Virus record (IMG/VR): IMGVR_UViG_2858656345_000001
Direction: 5' to 3' (one strand)
Length of the DNA stretch: 20,000 nt
From: an uncultured virus (IMG/VR IMGVR_UViG_2858656345_000001)
Taxonomy: Duplodnaviria > Heunggongvirae > Uroviricota > Caudoviricetes
The notes under the pieces were generated by a model, which worked only from the letters and a program-made list of their open reading frames with translations, was not told the DNA's origin and searched no databases. Shown here in pieces: positions 2,909-18,593 of the stretch. The stretch's first letter is position 1; every line of letters starts with the position of its first letter. A program made the translations under genes and the position numbers.

Positions 2909-2955
2909 TGCTTAAAATTTCGCCCGAAACAAACAGCGGTTTCGTGCTCGTCTAC

Positions 2956-2995
2956 AATACCTTGTAAAGGTATTCCGTGTTTTAATATAAAACAC
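2956..2995 (-). promoter_or_regulatory. Candidate late/packaging promoter region with two tandem 8-3-8 palindromes
   Basis: AATACCTT-gta-AAGGTATT (2956-2974) and GTGTTTTA-ata-TAAAACAC (2977-2995) lie in the 110-bp gap before the ParB-GT-terS-terL block. The minus strand has TACCTTTA, a near match to the Bacteroidetes -7 box TAnnTTTG. Confidence 0.55.
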
Positions 2996-3018
2996 AGCTC
3001 GGTGAAAAAAGATATGCT

Positions 3019-3516
3019 TTACTTATTCCTCCCGACGCGTATTGGAAGACCGGAGAATACCCATGCGAGGAGTGCGGCATCTCGTGCGTCTTGATTCGTC
3101 CGCCCCTTTATGCCTGTGAACGAGACCAGCTCTTCGTGCGTGATCTTTCCATCCTTGCCCCTCCAGCACTTCCTGAGCGGCGCGTGTTCTAAGACCTCGA
3201 TGCCGAGGTGCCGGCACATTTCGGCAATCTTCCTGCCGGTCTCATGGTTCCTGCCCACGTCGTAGCCCTTAGATGCGGCCCTCTGTCGCCTCTCCCATGA
3301 CGACAGGTGCCAATTCCCTTGGATCAGCCAGCTTGCCTCGACGAGTACGATAAGCGTCTCTGTTCCATTGCTCCGGTTTGCTTGTTGCAAGTAGTCGATT
3401 ACCTGCGGAAAGGTGAGGTTTGAGACCTCCAACAGTCCGGTCGCCGGCTTCAAGAACGCAACACCGGAACGGGAGACGTCGGGATCTATAGCTATAATGT
3501 TGTCGTATCGCTTCAT
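3019..3516 (-). CDS. RuvC/RNase H-fold nuclease, probable Holliday junction resolvase
   Basis: Acidic motifs IIAIDPD-SGVA, VLVE and DARDAALLA. Sits at the end of the replication module. Confidence 0.7.
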   Translation of the reverse strand: MKRYDNIIAIDPDVSRSGVAFLKPATGLLEVSNLTFPQVIDYLQQANRSNGTETLIVLVEASWLIQGNWHLSSWERRQRAASKGYDVGRNHETGRKIAEMCRHLGIEVLEHAPLRKCWRGKDGKITHEELVSFTGIKGRTNQDARDAALLAWVFSGLPIRVGRNK

Positions 3517-3534
3517 CTTATCAATCTATTATTA

Positions 3535-3804
3535 CTATACACCATGCTCAAAATAATCTCCCCATTGGTCTTGGTCTGCACCATCATAATCTCCAGCGCT
3601 TTGTCCGCGGTCTGTTTCCATCCATACATTCCACAACCCACGTCTTATGTTGTTGCGCTCAACGCGCTCTTTGCTGTAGCATGGTCTGCCTTGCTCTCTT
3701 TTTCTTGCTGCACAGCTTTTTGAGCAACAAAGCCCCCATCCACGTTTGAGGTTGCGGCTGTCAGCCTCGTATTCCTTTCCGCAATAGTCACACTTTCGCT
3801 TCAT
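3535..3804 (-). CDS. Small Cys-rich zinc-binding phage protein
   Basis: CDYC-x(n)-CCSKSC pattern; co-oriented in the operon. Confidence 0.65.
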   Translation of the reverse strand: MKRKCDYCGKEYEADSRNLKRGWGLCCSKSCAARKREQGRPCYSKERVERNNIRRGLWNVWMETDRGQSAGDYDGADQDQWGDYFEHGV

Positions 3805-3831
3805 CCTGTCGGGTTATTTAATAGGGGAATT

Positions 3832-4497
3832 TTAATCCTCCAAAATCTCGAAATCGTAAGCAAACACGTACGGATTGCTCCCCCATGTGCCTTTTCCGGA
3901 AAGCGCGTCTATCAAGTGCGCATAGGCATCGCGAGGTGTTGGGAATAATTTCATACAACCCCTTTCAGTTTCTCTGTGTGGTTCTTTTTGCCAGTTTCTT
4001 ACCTTTAAGCCATCGACATAGAATCCAATACTTGCTTCCTGAATACCCTCCAGCAAACATTCATCATCGGTAATCTCTTGCAGGCACTGTATCCGCACAT
4101 CGGTTATTTCGATTCGTCTGGGCATGTATTTAGGTTTTACGAACATCTTATTATTCCAACCCTTTTCTCCCTCTAAATCCTTTCTAAAATCTGCCACAGA
4201 CATTCCCGCTGGCAGATTTCGTTTATACGTCTCCCAGTCATACAAAAAACCAATATACATATCCGAATATCGCTGGGCGATGGCCACAATTTCGCCCTTT
4301 TTGTATTGTGCGAAACTGGTATCACGAATATCCCAAAAATCTCCATAGCGATCTTGCGTGTAGATTATCTTCGGGCTTTCAAATGTTTCTTCGACATCCC
4401 AGATCAACGAAAACACCGCTTTAGGAACGAATCTCCGCGTCTGCCTTTTTCTCCCTTCCAAGACCGCTTGCGTCAAAAGAAAGCGGTCGTTAAACAT
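3832..4497 (-). CDS. ASCH/PUA-like domain phage protein
   Basis: AVLEGRKRQTRR (GxKxxTxR), IEITDVRIQCLQEITDDECLLEG and WGSNPYVFAYDFE motifs. Confidence 0.7.
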   Translation of the reverse strand: MFNDRFLLTQAVLEGRKRQTRRFVPKAVFSLIWDVEETFESPKIIYTQDRYGDFWDIRDTSFAQYKKGEIVAIAQRYSDMYIGFLYDWETYKRNLPAGMSVADFRKDLEGEKGWNNKMFVKPKYMPRRIEITDVRIQCLQEITDDECLLEGIQEASIGFYVDGLKVRNWQKEPHRETERGCMKLFPTPRDAYAHLIDALSGKGTWGSNPYVFAYDFEILED

Positions 4498-4504
4498 TAT
4501 TTTT

Positions 4505-4957
4505 TCATATTATTTCTTCGTTATAGAAATCCTCCAATTTATTGTCGTGAATGTTGCCGATTATTTCGATGGCACTACCACCGAACCCGTCGTGGTTGTA
4601 AGCCCTGTTTAATGACAGCTCTACTCCATCATTACCAGCGATATATTGAGCTTCTTCGTTACTCCAATACACCTCTGCGACCCTTGAGTCTCCAATTTTC
4701 ACAATATCCCCCTCGTATATTTCCTTGCCGTTTCGGTCTTTCAGTCCGGCGTATTGGCCTATTGAGTCGGGGTATACCTCCAAGAGCCCATGGACGAAAT
4801 GTCCGATGATCTCTGGGTCTCCGCCTTCAAATACCCCAGCATATTCATCTGTATCCTCAAATAGATACGCATTTCCATTTGTTTGAATTACAGCATTTCC
4901 ATAACCCCACAGATACCCACCTGTTGTGGGTTTTGCTCTAAATTTGATTTCTCTCAT
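4505..4957 (-). CDS. YopX family phage protein (start moved to MREIKFR at 4957)
   Basis: MREIKFRAK, GQYAGLKDRNGKEIYEGDIV and EIIGNIHDN are YopX signatures. Confidence 0.9.
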   Translation of the reverse strand: MREIKFRAKPTTGGYLWGYGNAVIQTNGNAYLFEDTDEYAGVFEGGDPEIIGHFVHGLLEVYPDSIGQYAGLKDRNGKEIYEGDIVKIGDSRVAEVYWSNEEAQYIAGNDGVELSLNRAYNHDGFGGSAIEIIGNIHDNKLEDFYNEEII

Positions 4958-4973
4958 AGTTTTGTGTGTTAAG

Positions 4974-5382
4974 TCAAAATAAATATCCACTACTCTCCTG
5001 TGTGTAGTCTACTAAATCCTCAGCAGCAAACAACTGCGGTACGGACTGTTGTTTCATCAGCCGCTCCTTGGCTGCGCTGTAATACTCCGGGTCAAGCTCT
5101 ATACCTGTGAGCTCAAAGCCCATCGCATCAGCTGCAAGGCAGATAGAGCCACTTCCCAAGTGGGTATCAAGGATTCTATCCCCACTCCTTGCGTATCTTT
5201 TTAGCAGCCACGCGTATAAAGCGACGGGCTTTTGACAAGGGTGAACCCTTTTCTCCTCCGGCTTTTGAGTACGGAGGATCGACAATGGCCAAGTCGAAAG
5301 CGTTATCCGGCAGCTCCCTCAACACGTCCATGCAGTCGGCGTTGATGAGACGGATCTTATTCAGATGTTCGATTCTAATCAT
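4974..5382 (-). pseudogene. Beta-class N6/N4 DNA methyltransferase with internal deletion and frameshift
   Basis: The N-terminal frame NADCMDVLRELPDNAFDLAIVDPPY ends only 25 nt before a different frame reading HPCQKP...ILDTHLGSGS...GIELDPEYY. The central motifs and target-recognition region are missing. Confidence 0.85.
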
Positions 5383-6184
5383 AAATCCTTTCAAATTTCA
5401 ATTCGTCAGAGGCAAACCGTATAGTGTTTGTCTCTCGGATTCGGTATATTGCCTTGTCTGATAGCTGGCACTCAATGGTGTCATGTGACGTAACGTAGGC
5501 GTTGCCACAAGCCTCCACCGTTGCACTGTCACAAGCCTCCACCGTTGCACTGCCCCAGGCCCGAACCGTTGCACTGCCCCAGGCCCGAACCGTTGCACTG
5601 TCNNNNNNNNNNNNNNNNNNNNNNNNNNNNNNNNNNNNNNNNNNNNNNNNNNNNNNNNNNNNNNNNNNNNNNNNNNNNNNNNNNNNNNNNNNNNNNNNNN
5701 NNNNNNNNNNNNNNNNNNNNNNNNNNNNNNNNNNNNNNNNNNNNNNNNNNNNNNNNNNNNNNNNNNNNNNNNNNNNNNNNNNNNNNNNNNNNNNNNNNNN
5801 NNNNNNNNNNNNNNNNNNNNNNNNNNNNNNNNNNNNNNNNNNNNNNNNNNNNNNNNNNNNNNNNNNNNNNNNNNNNNNNNNNNNNNNNNNNNNNNNNNNN
5901 NNNNNNNNNNNNNNNNNNNNNNNNNNNNNNAATAAATAGCCGGAATCTACCGATTCATTGCAGTGGATTCCATGTTCCGTAAATAGATCCCTGTATTCCT
6001 TTATGAGAGGTACAGTAAGCACCTTGTTTGTCACACACCAGTGGAAATTGTCCTTGATTACCTCCATTAGCTCCTCTGGCGTTTCAGAAGAATACGCTCT
6101 TCCATATTGCTCTCGACAGGCTTCGGCGATTCTCGCGCTTGCAAGGATTGTTTCTTTTAGTTCTAAAAAATTGTTTGTTTTCAT
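5375..6184 (-). CDS. Octapeptide-repeat (SATVxAxG/D) probable beta-solenoid protein spanning an assembly gap
   Basis: Helical N-terminus and a C-terminal SATVRAWG/SATVEACD array. Continuity across the N run is assumed. Confidence 0.65.
   Translation of the reverse strand: MKTNNFLELKETILASARIAEACREQYGRAYSSETPEELMEVIKDNFHWCVTNKVLTVPLIKEYRDLFTEHGIHCNESVDSGYLXXXXXXXXXXXXXXXXXXXXXXXXXXXXXXXXXXXXXXXXXXXXXXXXXXXXXXXXXXXXXXXXXXXXXXXXXXXXXXXXXXXXXXXXXXXXXXXXXXXXXXXXXXXXXXDSATVRAWGSATVRAWGSATVEACDSATVEACGNAYVTSHDTIECQLSDKAIYRIRETNTIRFASDELKFERIYD
5504..5602. repeat. 24-bp coding tandem repeat, at least 4 units of two variants, running into the gap
   Basis: Units g(c/t)cacaagcctccaccgttgcact x2 and gccccaggcccgaaccgttgcact x2, with the constant core accgttgcactg. 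Confidence 0.95.
5603..5930. other. Assembly gap (328 N)
   Basis: Run of N directly adjacent to the tandem repeat. Confidence 1.
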
Positions 6185-6216
6185 TGTCTTAGTTGTTTTC
6201 TGTTTCTTTTTTACTG

Positions 6217-6402
6217 TTAGTCGAACAAATCTCGGGCAATCGGTTGCCCTTTTATAATCTCGTTAACTCGCTGTATTTCCGCATCGACTGCTCTTTCAAG
6301 TTGCTTTGATTCAGCCAAAGCCGATGGACTCTTCGTTCGGAAGAACTCCTTTTGTGTAGCTCTCATGTTGCCAACAAGTTCAAAGAACAATTTCGCGTTC
6401 AT
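6217..6402 (-). CDS. Small hypothetical phage protein
   Basis: 61 aa, helical, ATGA overlap with the upstream gene. Confidence 0.7.
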   Translation of the reverse strand: MNAKLFFELVGNMRATQKEFFRTKSPSALAESKQLERAVDAEIQRVNEIIKGQPIARDLFD

Positions 6403-7001
6403 TTCTCGATAGTATTACTTGTCGATAGTATTTCATTCGCCTTATCTGCCATACTACGAAAATACCCGTTGAACCGGTATTCGTCGGGGTATTTGTTTAT
6501 CATATGCAGCATAGAGGAGATGTCTCGGTTTATGAATCTTGCGACGTCATCCAGCTTCAGATTTGCTGCCTTACAGTGGTGCACAAACAATATTCGGGCG
6601 AAGAATTTATTCCTCTTTCGGCTCTTCGTATTGTAGTCGTTGAGCTGTAGACCTGTGGCCTCATGGATAGCGTTCTGAATCCGCAGGAGCGAACCCTGCG
6701 TGTTCTTGACGTTCGATTCGAACAGGACTATCTTGCACGTTCGAATAGCGAAATCGTATTCGATTGTAGCACCTACACTGTCCATCCACCCGTCAAGCAT
6801 GTAGATTGCACTACATTCGTGAAGCATCTTAATGTCATTGCACATGTGGTCTATCCATGCGTCGCTTCTGCTTAGCCTGTTCTTCAGAGGGTTTACAGGC
6901 TCCAGCGACAAGCTTGTCAAGAACTCCTCGGCGAGTCCGAACCGCCTCTTTACAGTGTCGTAGCTTATGCCGGTTATACGGCCGCTTATGTACACTTTCA
7001 T
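6399..7001 (-). CDS. DUF4406 (nucleoside deoxyribosyltransferase-like) domain fused to a DnaA domain IV-like HTH
   Basis: N-terminal KVYISGRITG...NP...W...DIKML..CSAIYMLDGWMDSVGATIE. C-terminal KSRKRNKFFAR...LDDVARFINRDISSMLH resembles DnaA RDHTTVLH. Confidence 0.75.
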   Translation of the reverse strand: MKVYISGRITGISYDTVKRRFGLAEEFLTSLSLEPVNPLKNRLSRSDAWIDHMCNDIKMLHECSAIYMLDGWMDSVGATIEYDFAIRTCKIVLFESNVKNTQGSLLRIQNAIHEATGLQLNDYNTKSRKRNKFFARILFVHHCKAANLKLDDVARFINRDISSMLHMINKYPDEYRFNGYFRSMADKANEILSTSNTIEK

Positions 7002-7219
7002 TGCAGCGGTGTGTTTATTCCGGCTGGGAGCTTACCGACTTCTATCGCAAGCTTCGCCCCACCGGTAATTTCTTCCAGCAGTCGTTCCTCGCTCTCGATT
7101 AGGCCCTCCGAATCGTCATCGTAGAGCTTGTATATCTCGAAGAGTTCTACGTCCCATATTTTCCGAGCCTCCTCGGCACTTATACACTTCCACACGAAGC
7201 CATCTTTCGTTATTTTCAT
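6998..7219 (-). CDS. Small acidic hypothetical protein
   Basis: 73 aa, with ATGA overlaps at both ends. Confidence 0.7.
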   Translation of the reverse strand: MKITKDGFVWKCISAEEARKIWDVELFEIYKLYDDDSEGLIESEERLLEEITGGAKLAIEVGKLPAGINTPLQ

Positions 7220-7950
7220 ACTTTTTTTCTTCTGTCTTTACCTTTTATTTCGAGATAATTGCACATTTCACAGAGACGCGATTGCACGCGGTCTCCGTAG
7301 TCGTTTCTCAGCCTTTCGCTCGATATTCGCAGGTTTGAGGTTATCAGCGTCAGCTTTCCGTCACAGTCTCCTCGATATTCGAGCAGCTGTTGCAGTACGT
7401 TTTGCCTATTGCCCATGTAGAGTATCTCACGCGGCTCCTGCCCCAAGTCCTGAATTCCGAGGATCGGAACGCTCCTAAACTTTGCGATGTCGCCTGTCGA
7501 AGCATATTCTTGACAAATAGCGTCTGCCCTGCTTGTTACCCAAAACAGATTCACGATAGACCTTTCCGCGCGCGCCTCGCTTAGCCCCACTTGGAAACCC
7601 CAAGCACGAGAGTAGGTCAGCATGACATCCAAGCACCAAGATTTGCCTGAGCCGGTATTGCCAGCGATATAGATTCCGCGATTTATGTCCCCCTGCACGA
7701 CCTTGCCCGTAATCGGGTCTATGGCTTGCATGGCAGGGTCTGCATGGCACCACCGGATGAAGTTCTCGTAAGCAAATCGGTTTTCTTCGTCTATAGCGAA
7801 ATCCCTGTTGCGGATTCGGCCTATTGCAGTTACGACTTCAAGGGCATTGCCCATATCGTAGTCCGTAACGGGCACCCTTTCGATTCCGGCGTACAGCCTG
7901 TTCGCTTTCACGAACTCAAGCACGTCTTCAATCTTTAGGATTTGACTCAT
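7216..7950 (-). CDS. DnaC/IstB-like ATPase (helicase loader); likely start 7950
   Basis: Walker A GNTGSGKS, Walker B-like LGIQDLGQE, ITSN and YGDRVQSRL. ATGA-coupled to the initiator gene. Confidence 0.8.
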   Translation of the reverse strand: MSQILKIEDVLEFVKANRLYAGIERVPVTDYDMGNALEVVTAIGRIRNRDFAIDEENRFAYENFIRWCHADPAMQAIDPITGKVVQGDINRGIYIAGNTGSGKSWCLDVMLTYSRAWGFQVGLSEARAERSIVNLFWVTSRADAICQEYASTGDIAKFRSVPILGIQDLGQEPREILYMGNRQNVLQQLLEYRGDCDGKLTLITSNLRISSERLRNDYGDRVQSRLCEMCNYLEIKGKDRRKKV

Positions 7951-8657
7951 AACCATTCGTCGTTTATGGAATTTGCGGAATTAGTTCCTTGTGGTCGTGG
8001 GCTGTGAACAGTATTGTTGCCCTTGCTCCAAGTGCGGACGGCGGCTTTCCAGTCTTTCATTTTGTTCTTGCCGACCATCCACCCTTTCGAGGTGTAGAAG
8101 TCGATGAAGCGTTCGGCGTCTACAGCGTACCCCTTTTCAAGAATATAAGCCTTAACTTCTTCAGTGGTCGGTGGCACAAACGCTGTGCGTTTTGCCCCTA
8201 TATATTCTACTTCGTTAGAAGTAGATATATATTCTTTATCTTTATCTTTATCTTTATTCTTTGTATCAGTTTGTAATACATTTGTATTTGTTTCCTTTTT
8301 TCTGTAAGTCTTAGTGGTTCTTTCCCAGCGAGTTGCGATTGCAGACTTCCGCTTATCTGAAATCTCCTTGCGCTTATCTAAGCGAGCATTTACGGAGTTC
8401 GACCAAAAAAAGTTTCCGTCATTTTCAAATAATCCGAAGTCCAAAACGACGCTTTCTATCAATTCTCTCTCTTCGTGTAATTCAAAAGAAATACAACTGT
8501 ATTCATCAGTCGGTATTTTCCCGTCTCGCTCATAAAGCAACTCTATGATACACCAATATGCACCGATTCCGGATAGCCCGTGTTTTTGCATCAGGCGTAT
8601 CAGTTTCGGATCTCTTCGTGCGTTATAGTCGTGCGGAAAGTATAATGTATCTTTCAT
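7947..8657 (-). CDS. Phage replication initiator (DUF4373/Lin1244-like N-terminus)
   Basis: YFPHDYNARRDPKL...GAYWCIIELLY, low-complexity DKDKDK linker, and C-terminal FVPPT..EV...FIDFYTSKGW...KMKDWKAAVRTW. Confidence 0.8.
   Translation of the reverse strand: MKDTLYFPHDYNARRDPKLIRLMQKHGLSGIGAYWCIIELLYERDGKIPTDEYSCISFELHEERELIESVVLDFGLFENDGNFFWSNSVNARLDKRKEISDKRKSAIATRWERTTKTYRKKETNTNVLQTDTKNKDKDKDKEYISTSNEVEYIGAKRTAFVPPTTEEVKAYILEKGYAVDAERFIDFYTSKGWMVGKNKMKDWKAAVRTWSKGNNTVHSPRPQGTNSANSINDEWL
8206..8286. other. Candidate replication origin inside the initiator gene
   Basis: Palindrome TCTACTTC-gtta-GAAGTAGA (8206-8225), (TCTTTA)x4 at 8233-8256, and TTTGTA at 8260, 8270 and 8281, in AT-rich DNA. 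Confidence 0.45.
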
Positions 8658-8673
8658 TGCCTATTGTGGTTGT

Positions 8674-8708
8674 CCGCCTCGGCTGACTTTTTATATCGGC
8701 CAAGGCGG
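8674..8708 (-). other. Intergenic GC-rich hairpin without a U-tract
   Basis: Minus-strand CCGCCTTGGCCGA-tataaaaag-TCAGCCGAGGCGG forms a 13-bp stem with one G-U pair and one mismatch. Confidence 0.6.
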
Positions 8709-8718
8709 TTGCTAATTA

Positions 8719-9147
8719 TTACTTCTCTGCGAACACCTCAAGTATCTTAGTCTCCTCGACCTTTTCTACGATGTAGTCGGAAATAGAACCTTTCATGTGT
8801 TCGTCCACGCGTTTGTGGGCATCCATAGCTGTATCAGCATTGACTAACAAGTCAAAAGGGCTCTTTTTCTCTCTTCCGCTCTTTTCGTCGAGCGTCACCA
8901 GATTGAGCTTGCAGTGGAACCACTTTTCCGCTGCATCTTCTTGTCCCCGGAGAACTTCTGCATAGTTCTTTCGGGCTATTGCAACTATGTCGAAATCGCC
9001 GCTTGCAGTTGGGGCTATATACTCCTGCACAGTCCTTTCTGCTACTCCGAAACAGTCCGTTTCAACTAAATAGACCTCGGAAACTTGTTTTAAGCTTCCA
9101 TCCTCTTGCACCTTATCAAGGCGCGCTTTTACTTGACAGTAAATCAT
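8719..9147 (-). CDS. DUF4494 family protein
   Basis: KVQEDGSLKQVSEVYLV, KWFHCKL..VTLDEKSGREKK...LLVNA and VEETKILEVF motifs. Confidence 0.8.
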   Translation of the reverse strand: MIYCQVKARLDKVQEDGSLKQVSEVYLVETDCFGVAERTVQEYIAPTASGDFDIVAIARKNYAEVLRGQEDAAEKWFHCKLNLVTLDEKSGREKKSPFDLLVNADTAMDAHKRVDEHMKGSISDYIVEKVEETKILEVFAEK

Positions 9148-9151
9148 TTCT

Positions 9152-9649
9152 TTATTGTTTTATGAATAATATCCAGTGGGTGTTTGAGCGCTTTCCACTC
9201 TTGTGACCCAACACGGGCTTCTGCTCTGTTAGCTTGAGTATTTCCGACAGGGGGATGTCGGTTTCGTTCCACTTGAATACAAGTAGCCCGTTAGGCTTTA
9301 GCACCCGAAAGCATTCCCCAAACCCCCTCCTTAGCGTATCTCTCCAATCGCTGTCGAGATGTCCGTATTTTACCATCTGCCACCCGTTGAGCTCTTTTTT
9401 TGAGCCGGTATATTTGAGGTGTGGCGGGTCAAACACAACAGCAGAAAAAGATAAATCCGGGTAGGGCATACTCGTGAAATCAGCGATGACGTCTGGTTTA
9501 ACGACAAATTCGCGGCCATCGCAAAGGGTGGTCTCTACCTCCCTTATATCCTGAAACAGGACACGTGGATCCTGCTTGTCGAAGTAAAACATCTTCCCTC
9601 CGCAGCAAGCATCAAGTATTGGCTTTGTATCCATCAGTCCTGAAATCAT
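9152..9649 (-). CDS. Compact class I SAM-dependent (amino-type) methyltransferase
   Basis: ILDACCGGKM (motif I), VVFDPPH (motif IV variant) and ECFRVLKPNGLLVFKW. Confidence 0.85.
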   Translation of the reverse strand: MISGLMDTKPILDACCGGKMFYFDKQDPRVLFQDIREVETTLCDGREFVVKPDVIADFTSMPYPDLSFSAVVFDPPHLKYTGSKKELNGWQMVKYGHLDSDWRDTLRRGFGECFRVLKPNGLLVFKWNETDIPLSEILKLTEQKPVLGHKSGKRSNTHWILFIKQ

Positions 9650-9993
9650 CTTAGTCTTAGCTCCTCTATCAAGGCATCGGCGCAGGCAATAGCATATCGG
9701 GAGACAGCCTTGGGGGTGGTGCGTTTTTCTCCTTTTAAGTATATTGCTTCTGTGCAGGCATACCCCGTTTGTTCGTCACTGCTAAGGATGCCAGCCATAG
9801 CCTCCTTGGCTATTTCGTACCGCCGCTGCTCCCAGTCGATGGTTGGCTCATCAAGAATAAGCTCTACATCATCGAGACTTTTTGTGTCATATTCTCCAAA
9901 TGAGTTGTTCCCACCGTATTCGATACAGTAGTTATGTTTACTGTAGTTGATAACCTCTACTATCTCGCCTGTCTCTTTAATCCTCGCTTTCAT
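9646..9993 (-). CDS. Hypothetical phage protein
   Basis: MKARIKETGEIVEV and DWEQRRYEIAKEAM...ADALIEEL motifs, which I recognise from Bacteroidales phage proteins. Confidence 0.75.
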   Translation of the reverse strand: MKARIKETGEIVEVINYSKHNYCIEYGGNNSFGEYDTKSLDDVELILDEPTIDWEQRRYEIAKEAMAGILSSDEQTGYACTEAIYLKGEKRTTPKAVSRYAIACADALIEELRLR

Positions 9994-9998
9994 TTTTT

Positions 9999-10466
9999 TT
10001 ATTCTTTTGCTGTTATCCCAAATACGCTCTCAAGCAGCCTCCTCGCTGCTTTCTGCTTTGCTTCTTTCTGATTACATCCGCTTGCTCTTTCCTCTGTTCC
10101 ATCTGGCAGCACGATGGACACAGTGATCGTGGGGCAATGGTCTTGCCCGTTCTTCGCGATCACACGCGCTTCAAGACTCCTCCCGAAGCGCTTTTGCACA
10201 AGCTCCGATAGGACTATAATCGGGTTGCCTGTTGGTGCCGGTATAGGTGCTTGTTTTTGACCAGACAAGACGCCGCTCTCGATCTTCTCGGCTATCCCCT
10301 TTATGAAGAAGTGAAGACGATCGGCACTAACAGTTTTTGTTTTGCATGAATCCAGCAGCAACTGCGTGGACTTGGGGTCGTTCTTAACACGGCAAGTGTA
10401 TTTGCCGTTTTCTTGCTGGTAGAACTCCACTTCTACACCGTGGAGCGTCTTTGTTATTGTTGTCAT
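9999..10466 (-). CDS. Protein with a C-terminal double-stranded RNA-binding domain (dsRBD/DSRM)
   Basis: Residues 81-149 follow the alpha-beta-beta-beta-alpha dsRBD pattern: NPIIVLSELVQK, GQDH (GxxH loop), TITVSIV, and ASGCNQKEAKQKAARRLL (cf. GxGxSKKxAxxxAA). Confidence 0.8.
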   Translation of the reverse strand: MTTITKTLHGVEVEFYQQENGKYTCRVKNDPKSTQLLLDSCKTKTVSADRLHFFIKGIAEKIESGVLSGQKQAPIPAPTGNPIIVLSELVQKRFGRSLEARVIAKNGQDHCPTITVSIVLPDGTEERASGCNQKEAKQKAARRLLESVFGITAKE

Positions 10467-10469
10467 TTT

Positions 10470-11213
10470 TTAGAAAGGTGTTTTATTAAATTCTATTTCC
10501 GTCCCTGCGTCGGCTATATGCACGTTCTTGCAGGTCAGTTCTCGTATTCCATGCTTGAACTCCTCTGCCCTGCTGTTTGCGTCGGAGAGGTGTATCAATA
10601 CGATGTTGTTTACCTCCGACAGATCGTTGGCAGCAAGGACTTCCTTGCACGTTTCGTAGCTCATGTGGCTCTGTAGCGTCCTATCTCGTTGTTGCTTACT
10701 TATGCGACCCTGCTTGTAGTTGTCCTCCAGCAGGGTACTATCGTAGTTGCATTCGAGCAGGATGTTCGCAAGCCCTTTGAACTTGTACTTGAGGTAGTAG
10801 GTATCCGTTGCGAATAGCACCGTTCCCATCTCTTCGTGATAGATAAGGAAGCCGAAAGGCTCGGCAGCATCGTGCTGCACCTCGAACGGCAAGACAACAA
10901 AGCTTCCTATAACCTGCTTGCGATTCGGGATTAGCATCTCCATCTTGGGGCGGCTTACACCACCCTCGATGGAAACGATCGTACCGGAAGAAGCCCACAC
11001 GGGAATCCGCGCTCTCAAGAACGACTTAACGTGCTTTGCGTGGTCTCCATGCTCGTGAGAGACAAGGCAGCCAGCAATCCGTGCAATATCGAAATCGACT
11101 GCCTTTTGAATCTCACGGAATGGTATCCCACACTCAACGACAAGGCACTCCTTCTCGTTGTCAAACAGATAGCAGTTTCCTGCTGAGCTACTTCCGAGTA
11201 CTTTTAGTTTCAT
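10470..11213 (-). CDS. MBL-fold metallo-hydrolase, probable nuclease (start moved to MKLKVLGSSSAGN at 11213)
   Basis: SHEHGDH (HxHxDH), HD, ATDT, ECNYD, SHMS and LIHLS motifs. ATGA overlap with the upstream gene. Confidence 0.9.
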   Translation of the reverse strand: MKLKVLGSSSAGNCYLFDNEKECLVVECGIPFREIQKAVDFDIARIAGCLVSHEHGDHAKHVKSFLRARIPVWASSGTIVSIEGGVSRPKMEMLIPNRKQVIGSFVVLPFEVQHDAAEPFGFLIYHEEMGTVLFATDTYYLKYKFKGLANILLECNYDSTLLEDNYKQGRISKQQRDRTLQSHMSYETCKEVLAANDLSEVNNIVLIHLSDANSRAEEFKHGIRELTCKNVHIADAGTEIEFNKTPF

Positions 11214-11473
11214 ATTCCTAAAATTTCCTTTGCTTCGTTGAAACGTCGCTCCTCCATATGCACATCCCCTCGGAACCTTATTGTTGCTCGTTCCGCCCAC
11301 TCCTTGTAGCATTTCGGGCAGTACCAAAGGTTCAGGATCGCTACATAGTAGCCAACCGCGGTTTCCTTTCTACAGTGGTCGCATAGACCCATACTGCCGA
11401 ACTTTTCTTCGTACTCCGAACTGGATACTTCGATCACCAAGAAACCGCGGTTGTTTTTCACGACTTTTGCCAT
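11210..11473 (-). CDS. Small zinc-finger protein (start moved to 11473)
   Basis: CDHC...CPKC; the ATG lies 1 nt after the recT stop. Confidence 0.7.
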   Translation of the reverse strand: MAKVVKNNRGFLVIEVSSSEYEEKFGSMGLCDHCRKETAVGYYVAILNLWYCPKCYKEWAERATIRFRGDVHMEERRFNEAKEILGI

Positions 11474-11474
11474 G

Positions 11475-12383
11475 TTAGAATCCGGGAGCCTGCGCTGCCT
11501 GTTGTTCCTGTGGATCACCCTCGAACAGCTCTCCCGTTTGAGCATCTACGACCATCTCCGCTGTCTTATCTTTGCCCGGCGCAGCAAGATCAAGACCGAT
11601 AATAGTCTTGTTCGCGTTCTCATCGATCTCCTCTGCTACGACATCAGCAATATCTTGCTGATTGTCTACGTACTTAGATCCTGTCTCTGTGATAACTGCT
11701 TGATCGCTATTCACCGCGTTGATCATGTCCACGGACAAGGGGGCGTATTTTGACAAAAGCAGCTTAATAGCTGTTTTCTTTGCCATAGCGTCGAAGTCTG
11801 TAGCCCACTTGCTGTTTTGCTGCACTTTTTCGTATTTGCTGGAGTAGGTCTGCGAGTACTTTTTTGCATGTACATCGACCTCCTCTTTTGTCATGTACAG
11901 GGTCTTTTCAAACCCATTGGACAGCCGAAAGAATGCCGCATATCCGATTACCGGTCTTTCAGTCCTTTTAGGCACGGCGGTAAACCTCATTTCTCCGGTC
12001 AGTAGGTCGAACGTTTCAAGCTCTCCCTCTCTAACCTCCGTTACGTTTATAGTCTTGAATTGACCGCTCCGGATCGCCAGCTGGATAAATCCGCGATACC
12101 CGATTTGGAATTGTGCTTCCGTCTTGTTCTCCCTGTTGTTTTTGTAGGGGATTACGTAGGCAAATCCTAAGTTTGGGTCTAACGGCAAGTCTAAGGCTGT
12201 GGCCTTTAAGCCGGCAAACATTACGCTCATCGGCTCGCACGCCTGTAGCGTTGTGTTGTTGCTGACAAGTGCAACGATGTTGTTCACAAATGCGTTCTTT
12301 TTCCCTGAAAGAACCTGCTCCAAGTACGCCTGCGTCTTGGGGTCTGTGATTGCTCGATTGAACTGCTGTAAATTGCTACCCAT
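11475..12383 (-). CDS. recT: RecT-family single-strand annealing protein
   Basis: LDPNLGFAYVIPY, AQFQIGYRGFIQLAIRSGQ and WATDFDAMAKKTAIK motifs. Confidence 0.92.
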   Translation of the reverse strand: MGSNLQQFNRAITDPKTQAYLEQVLSGKKNAFVNNIVALVSNNTTLQACEPMSVMFAGLKATALDLPLDPNLGFAYVIPYKNNRENKTEAQFQIGYRGFIQLAIRSGQFKTINVTEVREGELETFDLLTGEMRFTAVPKRTERPVIGYAAFFRLSNGFEKTLYMTKEEVDVHAKKYSQTYSSKYEKVQQNSKWATDFDAMAKKTAIKLLLSKYAPLSVDMINAVNSDQAVITETGSKYVDNQQDIADVVAEEIDENANKTIIGLDLAAPGKDKTAEMVVDAQTGELFEGDPQEQQAAQAPGF

Positions 12384-12389
12384 TTCTTT

Positions 12390-14375
12390 TTAGTTGTTAT
12401 TAGTGATTATTATTAGCTCCTTGTCGGTCGTAACTACAAGGTTGATTATTTGACTTTCTGTAGCGAGAATCTCGTTTACAGACTCGCGCCCATCGATGAA
12501 GATCGGGGCACTCACACCGTGGAATTGCGACAGCGTATTGATTACGTCGATACCGGCGTTTACCTGATCGGCCGTATTCGTGCTGGCGTAATATCTGCCA
12601 CGCACAAGCGGAATGCAGCACTCGATCGGGTTTTCTTTCTTGCTGTCCTCGATGTTGTAGTCGAAGAGCTTAAATGTCACGAGTGAAAACATCGAATCGA
12701 TTCGCTTTTCACACTCGTCAATCTTTGCTTTGTTGAATTGCGCGATGGTGTACTCTTCGCGCTCTGCATCTGCTATCTGCCGGGCAAGCTCTTTTCCTCT
12801 TGCTTCAAGGTCGGCTATCTGCCGTGTGAATTGCTCGATGCGTCCACGGTCGGAAAGCTTAGCCATCAAACCGTCACGCGTGACCGACAACTCTTTCTTT
12901 TTAGCTTGGTATGCTTCTGTGCTGTCGGTATGCACCTGCCCCTCGCAGGCCTTTAGCTCTGCTTCAAGGTCGGCTATCTGCCGGGCGAGGTCTGTGTACT
13001 CCTTGATGTTTTCAGGTTTTACCTCCTCCTCTTTGACTTCTGTGATGGCTCCGAGTTCGCTGTTTAGAATTTCCAGCTCGGATTTCTTATTGTTCAGTAT
13101 ATCGCTCTCACGAACGATGTCTACTTCAAGCTTCTGTATCCTGCTTATCGCAAGGTCTATCTGCTCCTTGACACCTTTTCCCTTTTCGTTTATGACATCA
13201 AGCTCGCCCTGCTTGTGTGCCTTGAATACATTGAGAGCCTCCGACTTCATCGAATCCGGCAGCTCCTGTCCGCAATGTGCGCAAGTGGTCTCACCGGTAT
13301 ATTCCGTAGTATTTACTTCGTACCACTTCTTGCGCAAAGCGCCTACTTCCGTGTTGAGTTTTTCGACCTCTGCATTAAGGTTGGACTTTTTCAGGTATAA
13401 GGCTCGCACTTCTCCGCCCTCGGTCTCGGCTGTGAGCGTTCGGATTCGTGCAAGCAGATCGTTTCGCTTGCTGTTTGCCTTGTGCGCTTCCTCTTTCGAT
13501 GCGCTTTGCGCGTCGAAGAGTATTTTCTGCTGCCGGCTCTTCAGGGAATTAATTTCTCCCTGTTTCTTCTGTACAGCTTCGTACTGCTGCCTTGTCCTCT
13601 CTGCGACATCCGAGATAGCTCTTTCTATGTCTGCTATCTCTTTGTCTATGCCGGCAATCTCTGCTTCAATCACATCGAAGTCGGTAGATTCCGGCATCAA
13701 CTTGTGTGTTTGGTCGATACGTGGTTGTATTTCTTCAAGGTCTGCTTTCAGACGTTTCTTGCGCGCTGACAGCTCTTTCTTGAAGTCGGCAAGGCTCTTT
13801 CCCGAAAGCCTGTCGAGCAGCTCGGCAAAGGCCGGATTGGTGCTTGCAATTTCATTGTCATCAACCGTTCCGGCGAGCTGAAACAGGATGTCTCGTTGAT
13901 CCTGCCATTTTAGTGTGAAGAAAAAGGCAGGATTGGTAATCAGCTTAAACACCGTTTCATCTATAATAGACTTCACCCGTTGCTGGTATTCACCGACTTT
14001 CATCGGTACGTCATTAACCCAGCAAAGGGTTTCATTACCCTTTAGCACGGATTCAACTTGTCCTCGTGGCTTTACCCACTTCTCAGACAGTTCTCTTTTG
14101 AGAGTTATTTCCTCTCCGTCTATATCTAATACGCCTACGACGCTGCACTCTACGTTGTGCAGCTCCTCGCCGTCGATACGTGTCTTTACCTCGAAGTTAT
14201 CGCGCCCCTCTTTGTCTTTTCCGAAAAGAAGCCAGATAAAGGCGTCGAAGTGCCTGCTTTTGCCTAACCCATTGTCACCGGCAATCATGGTGCTAAGCGG
14301 GTCAAACACTGTTGTTCTACTTTGCTCTCCTCTGAAATTTGTCAGGGTTAAGCTTTTTAGTGTTACTTTCTTCAT
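12390..14375 (-). CDS. Rad50/SbcC/SMC-like ABC ATPase with coiled coil and zinc hook
   Basis: LTLTNFRG, Walker A GDNGLGKS, long coiled coil with central CAHC, and C-terminal PIFIDGRES Walker B. Confidence 0.88.
   Translation of the reverse strand: MKKVTLKSLTLTNFRGEQSRTTVFDPLSTMIAGDNGLGKSRHFDAFIWLLFGKDKEGRDNFEVKTRIDGEELHNVECSVVGVLDIDGEEITLKRELSEKWVKPRGQVESVLKGNETLCWVNDVPMKVGEYQQRVKSIIDETVFKLITNPAFFFTLKWQDQRDILFQLAGTVDDNEIASTNPAFAELLDRLSGKSLADFKKELSARKKRLKADLEEIQPRIDQTHKLMPESTDFDVIEAEIAGIDKEIADIERAISDVAERTRQQYEAVQKKQGEINSLKSRQQKILFDAQSASKEEAHKANSKRNDLLARIRTLTAETEGGEVRALYLKKSNLNAEVEKLNTEVGALRKKWYEVNTTEYTGETTCAHCGQELPDSMKSEALNVFKAHKQGELDVINEKGKGVKEQIDLAISRIQKLEVDIVRESDILNNKKSELEILNSELGAITEVKEEEVKPENIKEYTDLARQIADLEAELKACEGQVHTDSTEAYQAKKKELSVTRDGLMAKLSDRGRIEQFTRQIADLEARGKELARQIADAEREEYTIAQFNKAKIDECEKRIDSMFSLVTFKLFDYNIEDSKKENPIECCIPLVRGRYYASTNTADQVNAGIDVINTLSQFHGVSAPIFIDGRESVNEILATESQIINLVVTTDKELIIITNNN
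12801..12983. repeat. Perfect 24-bp direct repeat within the coiled-coil coding region
   Basis: tgcttcaaggtcggctatctgccg at 12801-12824 and 12960-12983, with a partial third copy at 12772-12785. Encodes RQIADLEA. Confidence 0.9.
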
Positions 14376-14397
14376 TGTTGTAGTATAATTGATATTG

Positions 14398-15048
14398 TTA
14401 CTCTGTTTCTCCCCAAAGCTTGGTTGCTATCTCAACTTTCTTGGCAAGTTCATTTACCTCTTTTTTTGCGTAGGTAAGAGTGTAGGCGTGTTCTCTTGGG
14501 TATTTCCCAGACTTAACACCCTCGTGGTATTCTACCGCCTTGGCGTACATTTCGGTGTAGTATTCCAGGCTCTCTGGCATCGAAAGATTCATATCCTCGG
14601 TATGTAGCTCCCAATCATTGGCTTTTTGCTCGAAAGCCCTCGCTTTGTCGTGCATTTCGACTGATTTTCCCATGTTATTCCAAGCGTCTTCGATAGCCTT
14701 TCTGTGTCGTTTCTCTGAATGATGACCAACCTTGATGGGTTCTCCAAGAGAAAGGAAGTCACGGTCTTTGTTTGAGCGGTCGAAATAGTGTTGGCTCTTG
14801 GCATCAGCCACACTTGCACTTCTCCTGTATTGCTCCGCCTTTCTCTTGGCTCTCTCTTGCAGATTATAGCCATCTGCACGAGTAATAGAGTAGTAGTAGA
14901 ATCCGTCCTTTTGTGCAACGAGGTTGTGCACAACGCATTCGTTTTCTTTCCCGTACTTGGTCGTTACCTCGATGAGGTCTCCTTTTTCGTGCTCCTCGTC
15001 GCATTTGGCAACGTACACGTTAGGGCAATACTTTGCATAAGTGTTCAT
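14398..15048 (-). CDS. DUF3560 domain protein
   Basis: GEPIKVGHHSEKRHRK signature. Confidence 0.85.
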   Translation of the reverse strand: MNTYAKYCPNVYVAKCDEEHEKGDLIEVTTKYGKENECVVHNLVAQKDGFYYYSITRADGYNLQERAKRKAEQYRRSASVADAKSQHYFDRSNKDRDFLSLGEPIKVGHHSEKRHRKAIEDAWNNMGKSVEMHDKARAFEQKANDWELHTEDMNLSMPESLEYYTEMYAKAVEYHEGVKSGKYPREHAYTLTYAKKEVNELAKKVEIATKLWGETE

Positions 15049-15062
15049 ATCTGTTTTCGTTG

Positions 15063-15347
15063 TTAGTTGTTGTTCCTCTTCATTAGTTGCAATGCAAGGT
15101 CGGCATCAACTGTTATCATGCGCCCACATTGGCTGATTGCCTTATCTATCTTTCCGCTTGCCTTGATCCGGTTTGCGGTCGTCGTAGAGCAGTTGAACAG
15201 CTGTGCTATACCTGCTATCCCGTACACGTATCGTCTCGGCGTTGGGGCTTCCTGCTCACCCATTGAGAGGCGGCGGAATACATCAACAAGCACGTCGGCA
15301 AATTCGCCGGCTGTCATGTCGATTACCCTTTTATCCACGGCGATCAT
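15063..15347 (-). CDS. DUF3853 family HTH protein, candidate excisionase/RDF
   Basis: DMTAGEF and YVYGIAGIAQLFNCSTTTANRIKASGKIDKAISQ.GR motifs. Confidence 0.85.
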   Translation of the reverse strand: MIAVDKRVIDMTAGEFADVLVDVFRRLSMGEQEAPTPRRYVYGIAGIAQLFNCSTTTANRIKASGKIDKAISQCGRMITVDADLALQLMKRNNN

Positions 15348-15505
15348 TTCTCGTCGGGTATTTCTTTGTTTATCACCCTCACGGAGTTGGCCAGATTGGC
15401 GACAAGAAGAAATCCTATCGCTACGTCCGTGCCATCCGATATAGCTGTCACCAGCAGGAGCGACAGTAGCAGGTACAGCCCTGCGAGACCTTTCCTGATA
15501 CTCAT
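15344..15505 (-). CDS. 53-aa hydrophobic, probably membrane, peptide (below the ORF-track cutoff)
   Basis: MSIRKGLAGLYLLLSLLLVTAISDGTDVAIGFLLVANLANSVRVINKEIPDEK. It exactly fills the gap, with TAATG overlap upstream and ATGA overlap downstream. Confidence 0.8.
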   Translation of the reverse strand: MSIRKGLAGLYLLLSLLLVTAISDGTDVAIGFLLVANLANSVRVINKEIPDEK

Positions 15506-15729
15506 TATTCCACCCCCCATACGTCTTTTATCCCGAAACGACGGAAGATTGCTTCAATCTCCATCGCCTCTGATACTTTCGGCTCTATGTGGCCGTTCAA
15601 CCGCTTAGACCAGCTGATACGGTTGTTTATGCCGATAGCCTTCATGATAAGCCCCCTGACTTCGTCCGCGTCTTTTTGTCGGACTTGCAAGAAGCCTTTT
15701 TTGAAAGAATACTTGTTGGTTTTATTCAT
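15505..15729 (-). CDS. Cro-like small DNA-binding protein
   Basis: First gene divergent from cI; basic, 74 aa; SWSKRLNGHIEPKVSEAMEI is XRE-like. Confidence 0.65.
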   Translation of the reverse strand: MNKTNKYSFKKGFLQVRQKDADEVRGLIMKAIGINNRISWSKRLNGHIEPKVSEAMEIEAIFRRFGIKDVWGVE

Positions 15730-15749
15730 ACTTATCTGAAAATTTTGCG

Positions 15750-15757
15750 TAGCTTTG
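15750..15757 (+). promoter_or_regulatory. Candidate -7 box of the cI promoter
   Basis: TAGCTTTG matches TAnnTTTG. No well-spaced -33 box seen. Confidence 0.4.
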
Positions 15758-15815
15758 AGGGCTACACTTGTTTGTTTTTTGCATCACAACTTCAAAGGTT
15801 GTGGCTTACACACTG

Positions 15816-15846
15816 CAAATATAGAATAAAGTTCAAAACAATGCAA
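15816..15846 (-). promoter_or_regulatory. Lytic (cro) promoter, Bacteroidetes type
   Basis: Minus-strand TATATTTG (15823-15816) with TTG 20 nt upstream (15846-15844). Confidence 0.65.
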
Positions 15847-15868
15847 CAATTTATAGAACAAATTTCAA
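15820..15868. promoter_or_regulatory. Two candidate repressor operators
   Basis: TATAGAATAAAGTTCAA (15820-15836) and TATAGAACAAATTTCAA (15852-15868) are 15/17 identical and 32 bp apart, each with a GAA-n5-TTC dyad. The first overlaps the lytic promoter and the second lies just upstream of it. Confidence 0.6.
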
Positions 15869-15875
15869 CGCCGGT

Positions 15876-16532
15876 ATGGAAAGAAAAATAGACAGATTCG
15901 ATAAGTTCCTGAAACACAAAGGAATAAATGATAATCAGGCGACTAAACTTTTGGGCTTTTCTACGGGGACTATTTCTAAATCGCGGGAAAAGGGGCGCGA
16001 TCTTTCAGACAGGAACGCGGAAAAAGCATTGAACTTTTTTCAAGACCTGTCGCGCGTTTGGCTCCTTACCGGCGTGGGAGAAATGATAAACAACCCCAAC
16101 CAACCGGCAGAAGCTAAGGATAATGATAGTACAGACGATGTGGCTATGGTTCCACTTCTCCCTATCGCAGCTCTTGCCGGCAGTCTGAGCGATTTCGCTG
16201 TATCGGTTATGTACTCCGATTGCGAGCAAGTAGTATCACCGATACGGGGTGCCGATTTGGCCATAACGGTAAGTGGTGAGAGCATGACACCGGAGTACCC
16301 GAACGGCTCTCAGATATTCATTAAGAGGATAAACGAAAAGGCATTTATCGAGTGGGGCCGCGTCTATGTCCTTGACACGGTGAACGGCAGTGTAGTAAAA
16401 AGGGTGTTTCCGTCCGATGATGAAAACAGAATCAAGTGCGTTTCAACGAATCCGGAATACCCGCCATTTGAGATAAACATGCAGGATGTGAACGGTATAT
16501 ACCGCGTGCTGCTGTGTATGAGCGTGAAATAG
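15876..16532 (+). CDS. cI: CI/LexA-like repressor (HTH plus S24 peptidase)
   Basis: N-terminal HTH ending WLLTGVGEM, Ala-Gly cleavage site in ALAGS, catalytic GESM and VVKRV. Confidence 0.9.
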   Translation: MERKIDRFDKFLKHKGINDNQATKLLGFSTGTISKSREKGRDLSDRNAEKALNFFQDLSRVWLLTGVGEMINNPNQPAEAKDNDSTDDVAMVPLLPIAALAGSLSDFAVSVMYSDCEQVVSPIRGADLAITVSGESMTPEYPNGSQIFIKRINEKAFIEWGRVYVLDTVNGSVVKRVFPSDDENRIKCVSTNPEYPPFEINMQDVNGIYRVLLCMSVK

Positions 16533-16549
16533 GATAATACCATACGAGT

Positions 16550-16840
16550 ATGAAAAACATCAAGAATATCAACCAGCAGGCTATCGAAATACAGCGGCGT
16601 TTTTTTGAGGCCATCGAGCTGGCTAAAACCCTTGAACGTACAAGCGGAATAAAGGAGTTTTGCATCACACACAACCTGAATAGAACTAAGTACTACAGGG
16701 TGAAGTCGCTATTGAATAAGCCACCGACTGAAATGCACTATAAGTCTATAGATATAGATGCGCTGCATTATTTGTGCCGCGACTTCGGCGTGTCCCCAAC
16801 GTGGCTGCTCCTTGGAAAGGGTGAGCTGAAAATACGATAA
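16550..16840 (+). CDS. Small XRE-like HTH protein
   Basis: IKEFCITHNLNRTKYY and LCRDFGVSPTWLLLGKG motifs. Confidence 0.7.
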   Translation: MKNIKNINQQAIEIQRRFFEAIELAKTLERTSGIKEFCITHNLNRTKYYRVKSLLNKPPTEMHYKSIDIDALHYLCRDFGVSPTWLLLGKGELKIR

Positions 16841-16844
16841 CGAC

Positions 16845-18113: not shown

Positions 18114-18115
18114 TA

Positions 18116-18247: not shown

Positions 18248-18270
18248 CACATGACAGCATGGTCTTGCTT

Positions 18271-18283: not shown

Positions 18284-18341
18284 TGAAAACCTTTTCAAGT
18301 AGTCCGAAAGACATCTGAAAAGAAAATTACAAAAAACGGAT

Positions 18342-18577: not shown

Positions 18578-18593
18578 CTAATTTTGAAACCAG

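Follow-up and report, generated by a model that had tools for sequence, protein, structure and literature searches.

The 20,000-nucleotide stretch of DNA analysed here (IMG/VR record IMGVR_UViG_2858656345_000001, hereafter the window) carries on its minus strand, at 9999..10466, a gene for a 155-residue protein that ends in a double-stranded RNA (dsRNA)-binding domain, or dsRBD. Reverse-complemented, window positions 1-18270 are 100% identical to positions 1-18270 of Porphyromonas phage phage005a_ATCC49417 (BK068088.1), which settles that this is a phage gene, as an earlier note made from the letters alone had held. The dsRBD gene is also 100% identical in phage005b (PP754928.1; product XAW31776.1). 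The stretch is the phage005 prophage of Porphyromonas gingivalis ATCC 49417 and, because positions 18271-20000 fall outside the phage005 record, it represents the end of the integrated prophage together with flanking sequence. Phage005 is described as a temperate, particle-producing siphovirus of an oral-bacterium host, with culture supernatants of ATCC 49417 enriched in its nuclease-protected DNA (Matrishin et al. 2023, PMC10367356). The coding sequence and the parts of its product are arranged as follows, with RNA-binding regions assigned after the textbook description of the domain.

9999..10466, minus strand: whole coding sequence, 155 residues plus stop, ATG start (phage005a_ATCC49417_13; XAW31776.1 in phage005b; P0001 in our family lists)
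10263..10466, minus strand: N-terminal domain (N-domain), residues 1-68, beta-beta-beta-alpha-alpha, without a Pfam or PHROG family
10227..10262, minus strand: Pro-rich linker, residues 69-80, of low model confidence, varying in length and sequence among relatives
10020..10226, minus strand: canonical dsRBD, residues 81-149 (alpha1 82-94, beta1-3 99-130, alpha2 133-149)
10203..10205, minus strand: Glu88 in helix alpha1 (region 1)
10137..10148, minus strand: G107-Q-D-H110 in the beta1-beta2 loop (region 2)
10056..10073, minus strand: N132-Q-K-E-A-K137 at the N-terminus of helix alpha2 (region 3, KKxAK-like)

Architecture and fold of the dsRBD protein

Sequence and predicted structure agree on the identity of the C-terminal domain. 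Pfam PF00035 (dsrm) matches residues 85-146 with an E-value of 2.3e-7 and 31.7 bits against a gathering score of 23, placing the full dsRBD pattern that the earlier note had read at 10020-10226 (residues 81-149) far beyond chance. An AlphaFold2 model built on a 13-row alignment, with a mean predicted local distance difference test (pLDDT) score of 80.9, folds this half as a helix (82-94), three strands (99-108, 111-119 and 125-130) and a second helix (133-149), the alpha-beta-beta-beta-alpha order of the family. The N-domain is modelled as strands 3-8, 11-17 and 22-27 followed by helices 31-40 and 48-63. Between the two halves, linker residues 70-76 fall below a pLDDT of 50; the linker sequence, QKQAPIPAPTGN, is Pro-rich and predicted to be disordered or flexible. 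Foldseek returned 48 matches in the PDB at E <= 1e-3, those listed being dsRBD proteins, with root-mean-square deviations of 1.3 Å over 69 columns for 1di2, 2.0 Å for 7e4v and 1.3-2.3 Å for isolated dsRBDs. Both searches proposed in the earlier note, HMMER with dsrm and Foldseek, are thus positive.

Comparison with PDB sequences by phmmer pointed to the same family, with ADAR2 (2.3e-8), NF90 (4.3e-6) and TRBP (2.7e-5) joined by Staufen and the dsRBDs of RNase III enzymes. A profile of the phage family extended these matches to TRBP (2e-18), Aquifex RNase III (8e-11), PKR (2.4e-7) and vaccinia E3 (1.5e-5), always via profile positions ~51 onward, and RNase III chains were reached only through their dsRBD. 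In BFVD, the 38 matches at E <= 1e-3 come from eukaryotic viruses and comprise RNase III enzymes as well as dsRBD proteins, poxvirus PKR inhibitors of the E3 type among them, and no named phage protein stands among the matches listed (50 rows, several nameless). PHROGs v4 holds no family for the protein at E <= 0.01. As leads only, the ESM Atlas places it in a 60-member cluster automatically named 'DsRNA-binding protein family protein', 54% of whose members are labelled viral, with neighbouring clusters of 73-74-residue dsRBDs labelled mostly Bacteroidota and Bacillota.

A Pfam scan of the 155-residue protein at E <= 0.1 found no RNase III family, consistent with the earlier reading that the RNase III catalytic motif is missing, and neither PF13876 nor a HicA family. 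HicA toxins, which have a dsRBD-like fold, were accordingly rejected as relatives, the similarity being to canonical dsrm. Canonical dsRBDs contact RNA through a Glu in helix alpha1, a loop His in a GPxH-type motif and a KKxAK motif at the N-terminus of helix alpha2. The phage protein has Glu88 and both motifs singled out in the earlier note, G107-x-x-H110 and K134-E-A-K137, while phmmer aligns Gln133 with the first Lys of canonical KKxAK.

The domain call itself is not new, as it is already public in a supplementary table. The row for phage005a_ATCC49417_13 gives 'Double-stranded_RNA_binding_motif' by Cenote-Taker, 'DSRM' by CD-search, 'putative dsRNA-binding protein' by Bakta and PF00035 at 1.4e-5 by InterProScan, with a summary annotation of 'unknown' (PMC10367356). 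The term 'double-stranded RNA' occurs six times among the rows listed from the authors' annotation file, always for phage005a or phage005b, and the main text of the same paper has 0 occurrences of dsRNA, dsrm or RNA-binding (PMC10367356). A literature search, conducted mostly at the level of abstracts, found no paper on a phage dsRBD protein and none pairing PF00035 with a phage, in agreement with the earlier note, which knew of no characterised phage equivalent. The searchable literature describes neither the combination of N-domain and dsRBD, nor the joining of the N-domain to different C-termini, nor such a protein in a phage.

Family, conservation and the N-terminal domain

A word-indexed search yielded 12 homologues among 81 candidates, 44-96% identical and 128-157 residues long, of which 10 carry a precomputed PF00035 assignment. 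When a profile of these close homologues was run against 1.84 billion cluster representatives, it gave 351 matches at E <= 1e-3, with 89 at or below 1e-10 and 11 at or below 1e-30. Hidden Markov models of the two halves, taken from alignment A2, were then used to class the best 150 of the 351. Both domains occur in 52; the N-domain stands alone or with an unrelated C-terminus in 10; dsRBD-only proteins of at most 110 residues account for 39; one dsRBD in another context was seen in 14; and 35 are long, presumably eukaryotic proteins with several dsRBDs. Among the relatives scanned with Pfam no nuclease or other enzyme domain was found, and the 'stand-alone' description of the earlier note holds for the best 150 of the 351 matches. 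Pfam found dsrm or nothing, and no nuclease, in the longer two-domain forms P0017 (306 residues) and P0153 (246 residues), and PHROGs has no family at E <= 1e-3 for the two-domain relatives P0015, P0017, P0018, P0021, P0023 and P0153.

The protein family is rare. Among 50,697 GenBank phage records, tblastn with four family members recovered only phage005a and phage005b. In a sample of 401 genomes from the class of one carrier (G002), four matched at E <= 1e-8 and the N-domain was matched in G002 alone; the other three align only with positions 50-150 of the profile, and their open frames, 254-274 residues long, are of the size of RNase III. A pattern search with alignment A1 for loci of close relatives gave 78 pattern matches in viral contigs and 23 in genome contigs, with 0 confirmed in either set. 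Overall, the protein is a real, conserved, non-catalytic canonical dsRBD protein of phages.

Conservation was counted over 44 two-domain representatives, each at most 50% identical to the phage005 protein. In region 3, Ala136 is present in all 44, Lys or Arg occupies position 137 in 39 and position 134 in 35, and Asn132 is kept in 34; position 133 is Gln in 23 and Lys in 15. Helix alpha1 retains Leu86 (42 of 44), Gln91 (39) and Glu88 (28), Gly107 (29) and His110 (24) are retained in the loop, and Pro112 is kept in 27. Because the conserved positions are the RNA-contact residues of dsRBDs, selection falls where RNA binding predicts, most strongly on region 3. Signature, fold and conservation agree, and no other domain is attached; on these grounds the 155-residue protein probably binds dsRNA.

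The conservation pattern also bears on a different use of the domain, as a protein-binding surface of the 'type B' or 'black sheep' kind that would inhibit or hijack a host protein, such as the dsRBD of RNase III or a Cas effector, without RNA. The only moderate conservation of region 2 would suit such a surface, as would the frequent replacement of the first region 3 Lys by Gln and the weak, non-significant likeness of the N-domain to RWD/UBC-like domains and to two AcrIF proteins (Z ~4). Since all three RNA-binding regions are near-canonical in this protein, and Z scores of 4-5 are noise by the tool's own description, we consider this explanation improbable.

The N-domain was modelled from a 61-row alignment with a pLDDT of 86.8 and the same beta3-alpha2 order. 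The earlier note had called it an unknown domain ahead of a Pro-rich linker and a dsRBD, and so it proved: it has no Pfam family, no Foldseek match in the PDB at E <= 1e-3 and no convincing match by VIA-align, whose best Z among 48,161 chains is 5.0, within the tool's stated noise. By profile it is unrelated to the dsRBD half (hhalign probability 0.4%), and the ESM Atlas returned for the N-terminal part only the dsRNA-binding cluster of the protein itself, at 0.76. Its conserved core in the 44 representatives consists of Phe15 (42), a Phe at position 25 (40), Lys22 (37), Thr34 (35), Lys44 (35) and Arg or Lys at position 45 (35). The median net charge of the N-domain in the family is +4, so that a second contact with nucleic acid is conceivable.

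N-domains are also fused to unrelated C-termini without a Pfam or PHROG family, in a protein encoded at 5007-5441 (plus strand) of locus L029 (P0164) and in P0104, P0105, P0120 and P0121; a Pfam scan of seven N-only proteins found no family in any. With a phrog_28855 primase/helicase gene close by, the L029 fusion takes up an early-region position like that of the dsRBD form in locus L007, which suggests that the N-domain is a reusable module. It may be the N-domain, rather than the dsRBD, that is the constant module of the family.

Early operon and neighbourhoods of relatives

In the phage direction, BK068088.1 begins with an integrase, two repressors, small open reading frames (ORFs), an SbcC-like ATPase and RecT. 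There follow a gene labelled 'anti-Pycsar nuclease, Apyc1-like', which encodes a metallo-beta-lactamase (MBL)-fold hydrolase, the dsRBD gene ('hypothetical protein'), a second hypothetical protein and a methyltransferase, and thereafter a replication initiator, a DnaC-like loader, more methyltransferases, a Holliday-junction resolvase, a ParB-like protein, a glucosyltransferase and the terminase. The dsRBD gene starts 3 nt past the stop of the MBL gene and the following gene begins 5 nt after the dsRBD gene's own stop, and these short gaps place it in one operon with both. The same early operon includes DNA methyltransferases, a TET-associated glycosyltransferase and the MBL hydrolase. We call the dsRBD protein 'early' solely from its position in this operon. 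Other features of the window are listed below.

1126-2067, minus strand: TET-associated glycosyltransferase (PF20691, 1.7e-15), adjoining a gene annotated as ParB-like
8719-9147, minus strand: DUF4494 / phrog_19572 gene, function unassigned
10470-11213, minus strand: MBL-fold hydrolase (phrog_392, 2.3e-77), labelled 'Apyc1-like anti-Pycsar nuclease' in the record
11210-11545, minus strand: small Cys-rich ORF (phrog_22392, 2.2e-22 over residues 25-108), CxxC...CxxC, zinc-ribbon-like
16845-18113: phage005's own integrase
18594-19871: second tyrosine integrase gene (Phage_integrase, SAM-like and Arm-DNA-binding domains), outside the phage005 record

Relatives' loci were found with alignment A3 and their neighbours scanned with PHROGs, in one batch of L002 and L004-L007 and a second of L009, L010, L012-L015, L017, L018, L022, L024-L026, L028 and L029. 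Input to the second was 56 of 113 ORFs, with family members, all of L019 and most ORFs shorter than ~70 residues excluded. Loci that were very short or at a contig end (L003, L011, L016 and L027) were dropped, as were L008, which equals L007, L020 and L021, which lie on the L019 contig, and L023, which lies on the L006 contig. The resulting 20 loci, window included, are not independent, as L012/L013 and L007/L028 look near-duplicate and many contigs span 1-3 kb.

Most neighbours have no PHROG family. DNA methyltransferases occur in 5 of the 20 loci, primase, helicase, loader or initiator genes in 5, RecT or Erf annealing proteins in 2, and terminase genes on the opposite strand just upstream in 2 (L005 and L029). 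The phrog_392 MBL hydrolase is present in two, adjacent in the window and 3.2 kb away in L002. In this neighbourhood survey, of the kind envisaged in the earlier note, relatives lie in phage early or replication regions and no fixed neighbour accompanies them. From these changing neighbours we conclude that the dsRBD gene is an accessory of phage early/replication regions with no obligate partner. The sole recurring neighbour without an assigned function is the DUF4494 / phrog_19572 gene, found within one or two genes of the family member in three of the 20 loci (window 8719-9147, minus strand; L002 5993-6445; L026 1320-1751).

Two further explanations involve the MBL gene. In the first, the dsRBD would act as an RNA-processing cofactor that recruits a nuclease (RNase III of the host or a phage-encoded one, for instance the MBL hydrolase) to particular duplexes of phage or host RNA or sets the cleavage site, with the aim of timing phage gene expression or the lysis-lysogeny decision. 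TRBP, Loquacious and R2D2 guide Dicer in this way. All evidence for the dsRBD applies alike to such a role, the best PDB sequence matches include the Dicer partners TRBP and Loquacious, and the gene shares an operon with the MBL gene at the gaps given above. The MBL neighbour is nonetheless found in only 2 of 20 loci and adjacent only in the window, which counts against the partnership with an adjacent MBL nuclease that the earlier note had entertained, and no nuclease fusion exists among the family members scanned. We therefore regard a cofactor role as rather unlikely.

The second, which the earlier note had not considered, would make the protein an Acb4-like sponge, a dsRBD-like oligomer that sequesters cyclic-nucleotide immune signals and so complements an Apyc1-like hydrolase. 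SPO1 Acb4, of 96 residues, is a tetrameric 3'3'-cGAMP sponge with structural homology to dsRBDs (Chang et al., PMC11722364), the gene upstream of ours is annotated as an anti-Pycsar nuclease, and CBASS and Thoeris are reported in P. gingivalis (PMC10367356). Against this, PF13876 is unmatched both in the protein (E <= 0.1) and in 30 relatives (E <= 0.01), no Acb4 chain occurs in the best 60 of 97 PDB profile matches or among the Foldseek matches listed, and the conserved residues are those that contact dsRNA. Moreover, phmmer found no PDB sequence for the MBL protein at E <= 1e-3, so that its Apyc1 label represents remote homology (from the authors' HHpred). A sponge of this kind is highly improbable. 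The MBL gene itself sits within the SbcC-like/RecT recombination block, where a role in DNA processing is conceivable.

A further explanation, drawn from genomic position, is a replication or recombination accessory. It would bind RNA primers, R-loops or RNA:DNA hybrids at the phage origin or at recombination intermediates, while its N-domain docks onto the replisome or onto RecT/SbcC-like machinery. The window has the gene between RecT/MBL and the methyltransferase, replication initiator and DnaC genes, and relatives lie near primase-helicases, DnaC-like loaders, replication initiators, an Erf with an exonuclease and a NinB-like mediator. None of these replication genes is a constant neighbour, however, and accessory and replication genes are routinely mixed in phage early regions. 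Furthermore, canonical dsRBDs recognise 2'-hydroxyl groups on both strands and have poor affinity for hybrids or DNA, and we judge this role to have little likelihood.

Several observations concern the surroundings of the gene and of its relatives. The Cys-rich ORF at 11210-11545, located between RecT and the MBL gene, is without annotation in the GenBank record; its TGA overlaps the ATG at 11213 (ATGA), and the MBL protein read from that ATG has 247 residues and matches phrog_392 from profile position 6. Given this overlap and this match, the deposited MBL start at 11312 (280 residues) is probably too far upstream. The glycosyltransferase (PF20691) and the several DNA methyltransferase genes of the phage005 operon may point to hypermodification of DNA. 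At the prophage end, the second integrase gene (18594-19871) stands directly beside the phage's own (16845-18113) and possibly derives from another integrated element. A tRNA gene search of the window found none, although the authors class the phage under 'tRNA-Ser', and no Rfam family reached its gathering score anywhere in the window. Promoter-like sites were no commoner than in shuffled sequence in a promoter and terminator scan that used the sigma-70 consensus, which is not the Bacteroidota promoter type.

Among the relatives' loci, L019, L020 and L021 are one locus seen three times on a metagenome contig of 165,133 bases at a spacing of ~69.65 kb, apparently a phage genome of ~69.6 kb that was assembled as a concatemer; L004 is the same locus on a viral contig of 69,374 bases. 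In-frame stops immediately precede residue ~14 of the family member there, which lacks a clean start and may be truncated at its 5' end. An alternative genetic code was rejected for the L004 copy, in which a clean start is simply missing.

Proposed duplex-RNA shielding and comparison with known systems

Returning to dsRNA binding, the reading we prefer is that the protein sequesters duplex RNA during lytic growth, against RNase III or RNA-based immunity. On this view, the early replication/recombination operon of a temperate P. gingivalis siphovirus supplies an accessory protein that has two domains, is non-catalytic and acts by binding RNA; its C-terminal dsRBD would bind A-form duplex RNA without cleaving it. 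Candidate targets would be sense/antisense pairs or long hairpins in phage or host transcripts. The N-domain, specific to this family and held on a flexible linker, may supply a second function in self-association or partner docking, and nucleic-acid contact is conceivable. Coating of RNA duplexes in lytic growth would alter their fate by putting them out of reach of host RNase III, of immunity that is triggered or guided by RNA, or of the two together, much as non-catalytic dsRBD proteins of eukaryotic viruses do. Shielding from RNase III and the effects on Cas9 guide maturation, antisense toxin-antitoxin pairs or CBASS that the earlier note brought up are speculative.

We prefer sequestration because viral proteins with a single dsRBD work in this manner elsewhere, because the gene moves among early regions as an accessory without a fixed partner, because DNA-modification and putative evasion genes abound in the phage005 early operon, and because the host species is saturated with RNA-targeting Cas13b. 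Type VI-B Cas13b is reported in 73 of 79 P. gingivalis strains, with spacers that target all 24 candidate phage species, and the species also carries II-C, III-B, CBASS and Thoeris systems (PMC10367356). Pfam found no nuclease or other enzyme domain in the protein or in the longer relatives scanned. We assign the whole model, purpose included, a probability of roughly 0.4; the shielding or counter-defence purpose taken by itself is put forward tentatively.

Several points weigh against this model. The steady place of the gene among replication and recombination genes fits a role in DNA metabolism equally well. Gln stands in place of the first KKxAK Lys both here and in 23 of the 44 representatives, the loop His is kept in only 24 of them and the GxxH loop is absent from P0025, P0045, P0053, P0059 and P0122; RNA binding may therefore not extend to the whole family. 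In two close homologues the dsRBD is not intact, P0009 having an internal deletion and P0012 being truncated. Since 10 of the 150 best representatives (of 351) have the N-domain by itself or joined to an unrelated C-terminus, as does the L029 protein, the dsRBD may be an exchangeable accessory rather than the functional core. We know of no bacterial defence that is triggered by plain dsRNA; the nearest case, according to the abstract that describes it, is a structured cabRNA that activates a CBASS cyclase. Finally, the DeepAcr and PaCRISPR columns are blank for phage005a_ATCC49417_13 in the supplementary table (PMC10367356).

A bolder extension of the sequestration model, which we think doubtful, is that this family represents, for the first time in viruses of prokaryotes, an equivalent of the dsRNA-masking proteins known from eukaryotic viruses, blunting RNA-guided or RNA-triggered immunity in a host where Cas13b is near-universal. 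Through masking, target sites might stay double-stranded and out of reach, or a cabRNA-like trigger might be concealed from a CBASS cyclase, and the N-domain would then serve as a docking module reused by other phages in combination with different C-terminal heads. The study of RNA-level conflict between phages and their hosts is a young field, spanning Cas13, type III CRISPR, RNA-activated CBASS and RNase III-dependent processing, and the searchable literature describes no phage protein that acts by plain dsRNA binding. This small two-domain family would offer a tractable entry point, with an inducible prophage and a cultivable host that almost always has Cas13b. Even if it proved only a regulator of the phage's own transcripts, the protein would still give a first point of access to RNA-level control in P. 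gingivalis phages, and the N-domain represents a new fold-level module with swappable partners.

Set beside known systems, the phage protein is a member of the dsRBD family and not of RNase III, Acb4 or HicA. It shares with canonical dsRBDs (PF00035; Xlrbpa-2 in 1di2, TRBP, ADAR2, Staufen and the C-terminal domain of RNase III) the alpha-beta3-alpha fold and three RNA-contact regions. It differs from them in having no catalytic or known partner domain, in its fusion to a new N-domain of ~65 residues, in its phage origin and in the Gln that replaces the first Lys of KKxAK. Unlike class 1 RNase III, it has no all-helical catalytic domain, its N-domain being beta3-alpha2, and no RNase III Pfam family at the threshold given above. 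Acb4 (PF13876) is comparable in being small, phage-encoded, built on an alpha-beta3-alpha-like core and set in an anti-defence context (PMC11722364), but it belongs to another sequence family and forms a single-domain tetramer with extra helices, whereas the phage005 protein keeps the dsRNA-binding signature. Closer in sequence are stand-alone dsRBD mini-proteins of ~72-77 residues from phages and bacteria, which lack the N-domain; one of them, the 73-residue dsRBD-only P0049, is 51% identical to residues 81-145.

Poxvirus E3 (vaccinia E3/OPG065), a PKR inhibitor, resembles the phage protein in overall design, both being small viral proteins with one C-terminal dsRBD behind an unrelated N-domain. 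The likeness extends to sequence and predicted structure, as the family profile matches vaccinia E3 chain 8i9j_C at 1.5e-5 and BFVD gave matches to poxvirus E3-type proteins. The N-domain of vaccinia E3 is a Z-nucleic-acid-binding Z-alpha domain, in contrast to the beta3-alpha2 order of the phage N-domain, which is not a winged helix and has no Z-alpha chain among the fold matches listed. The host differs as well, being a bacterium in which no PKR/OAS-type dsRNA sensors are known. Because the N-domains appear to differ, the phage protein probably lies outside the E3 family; as a working analogy, an E3-type mask of dsRNA is our best guess.

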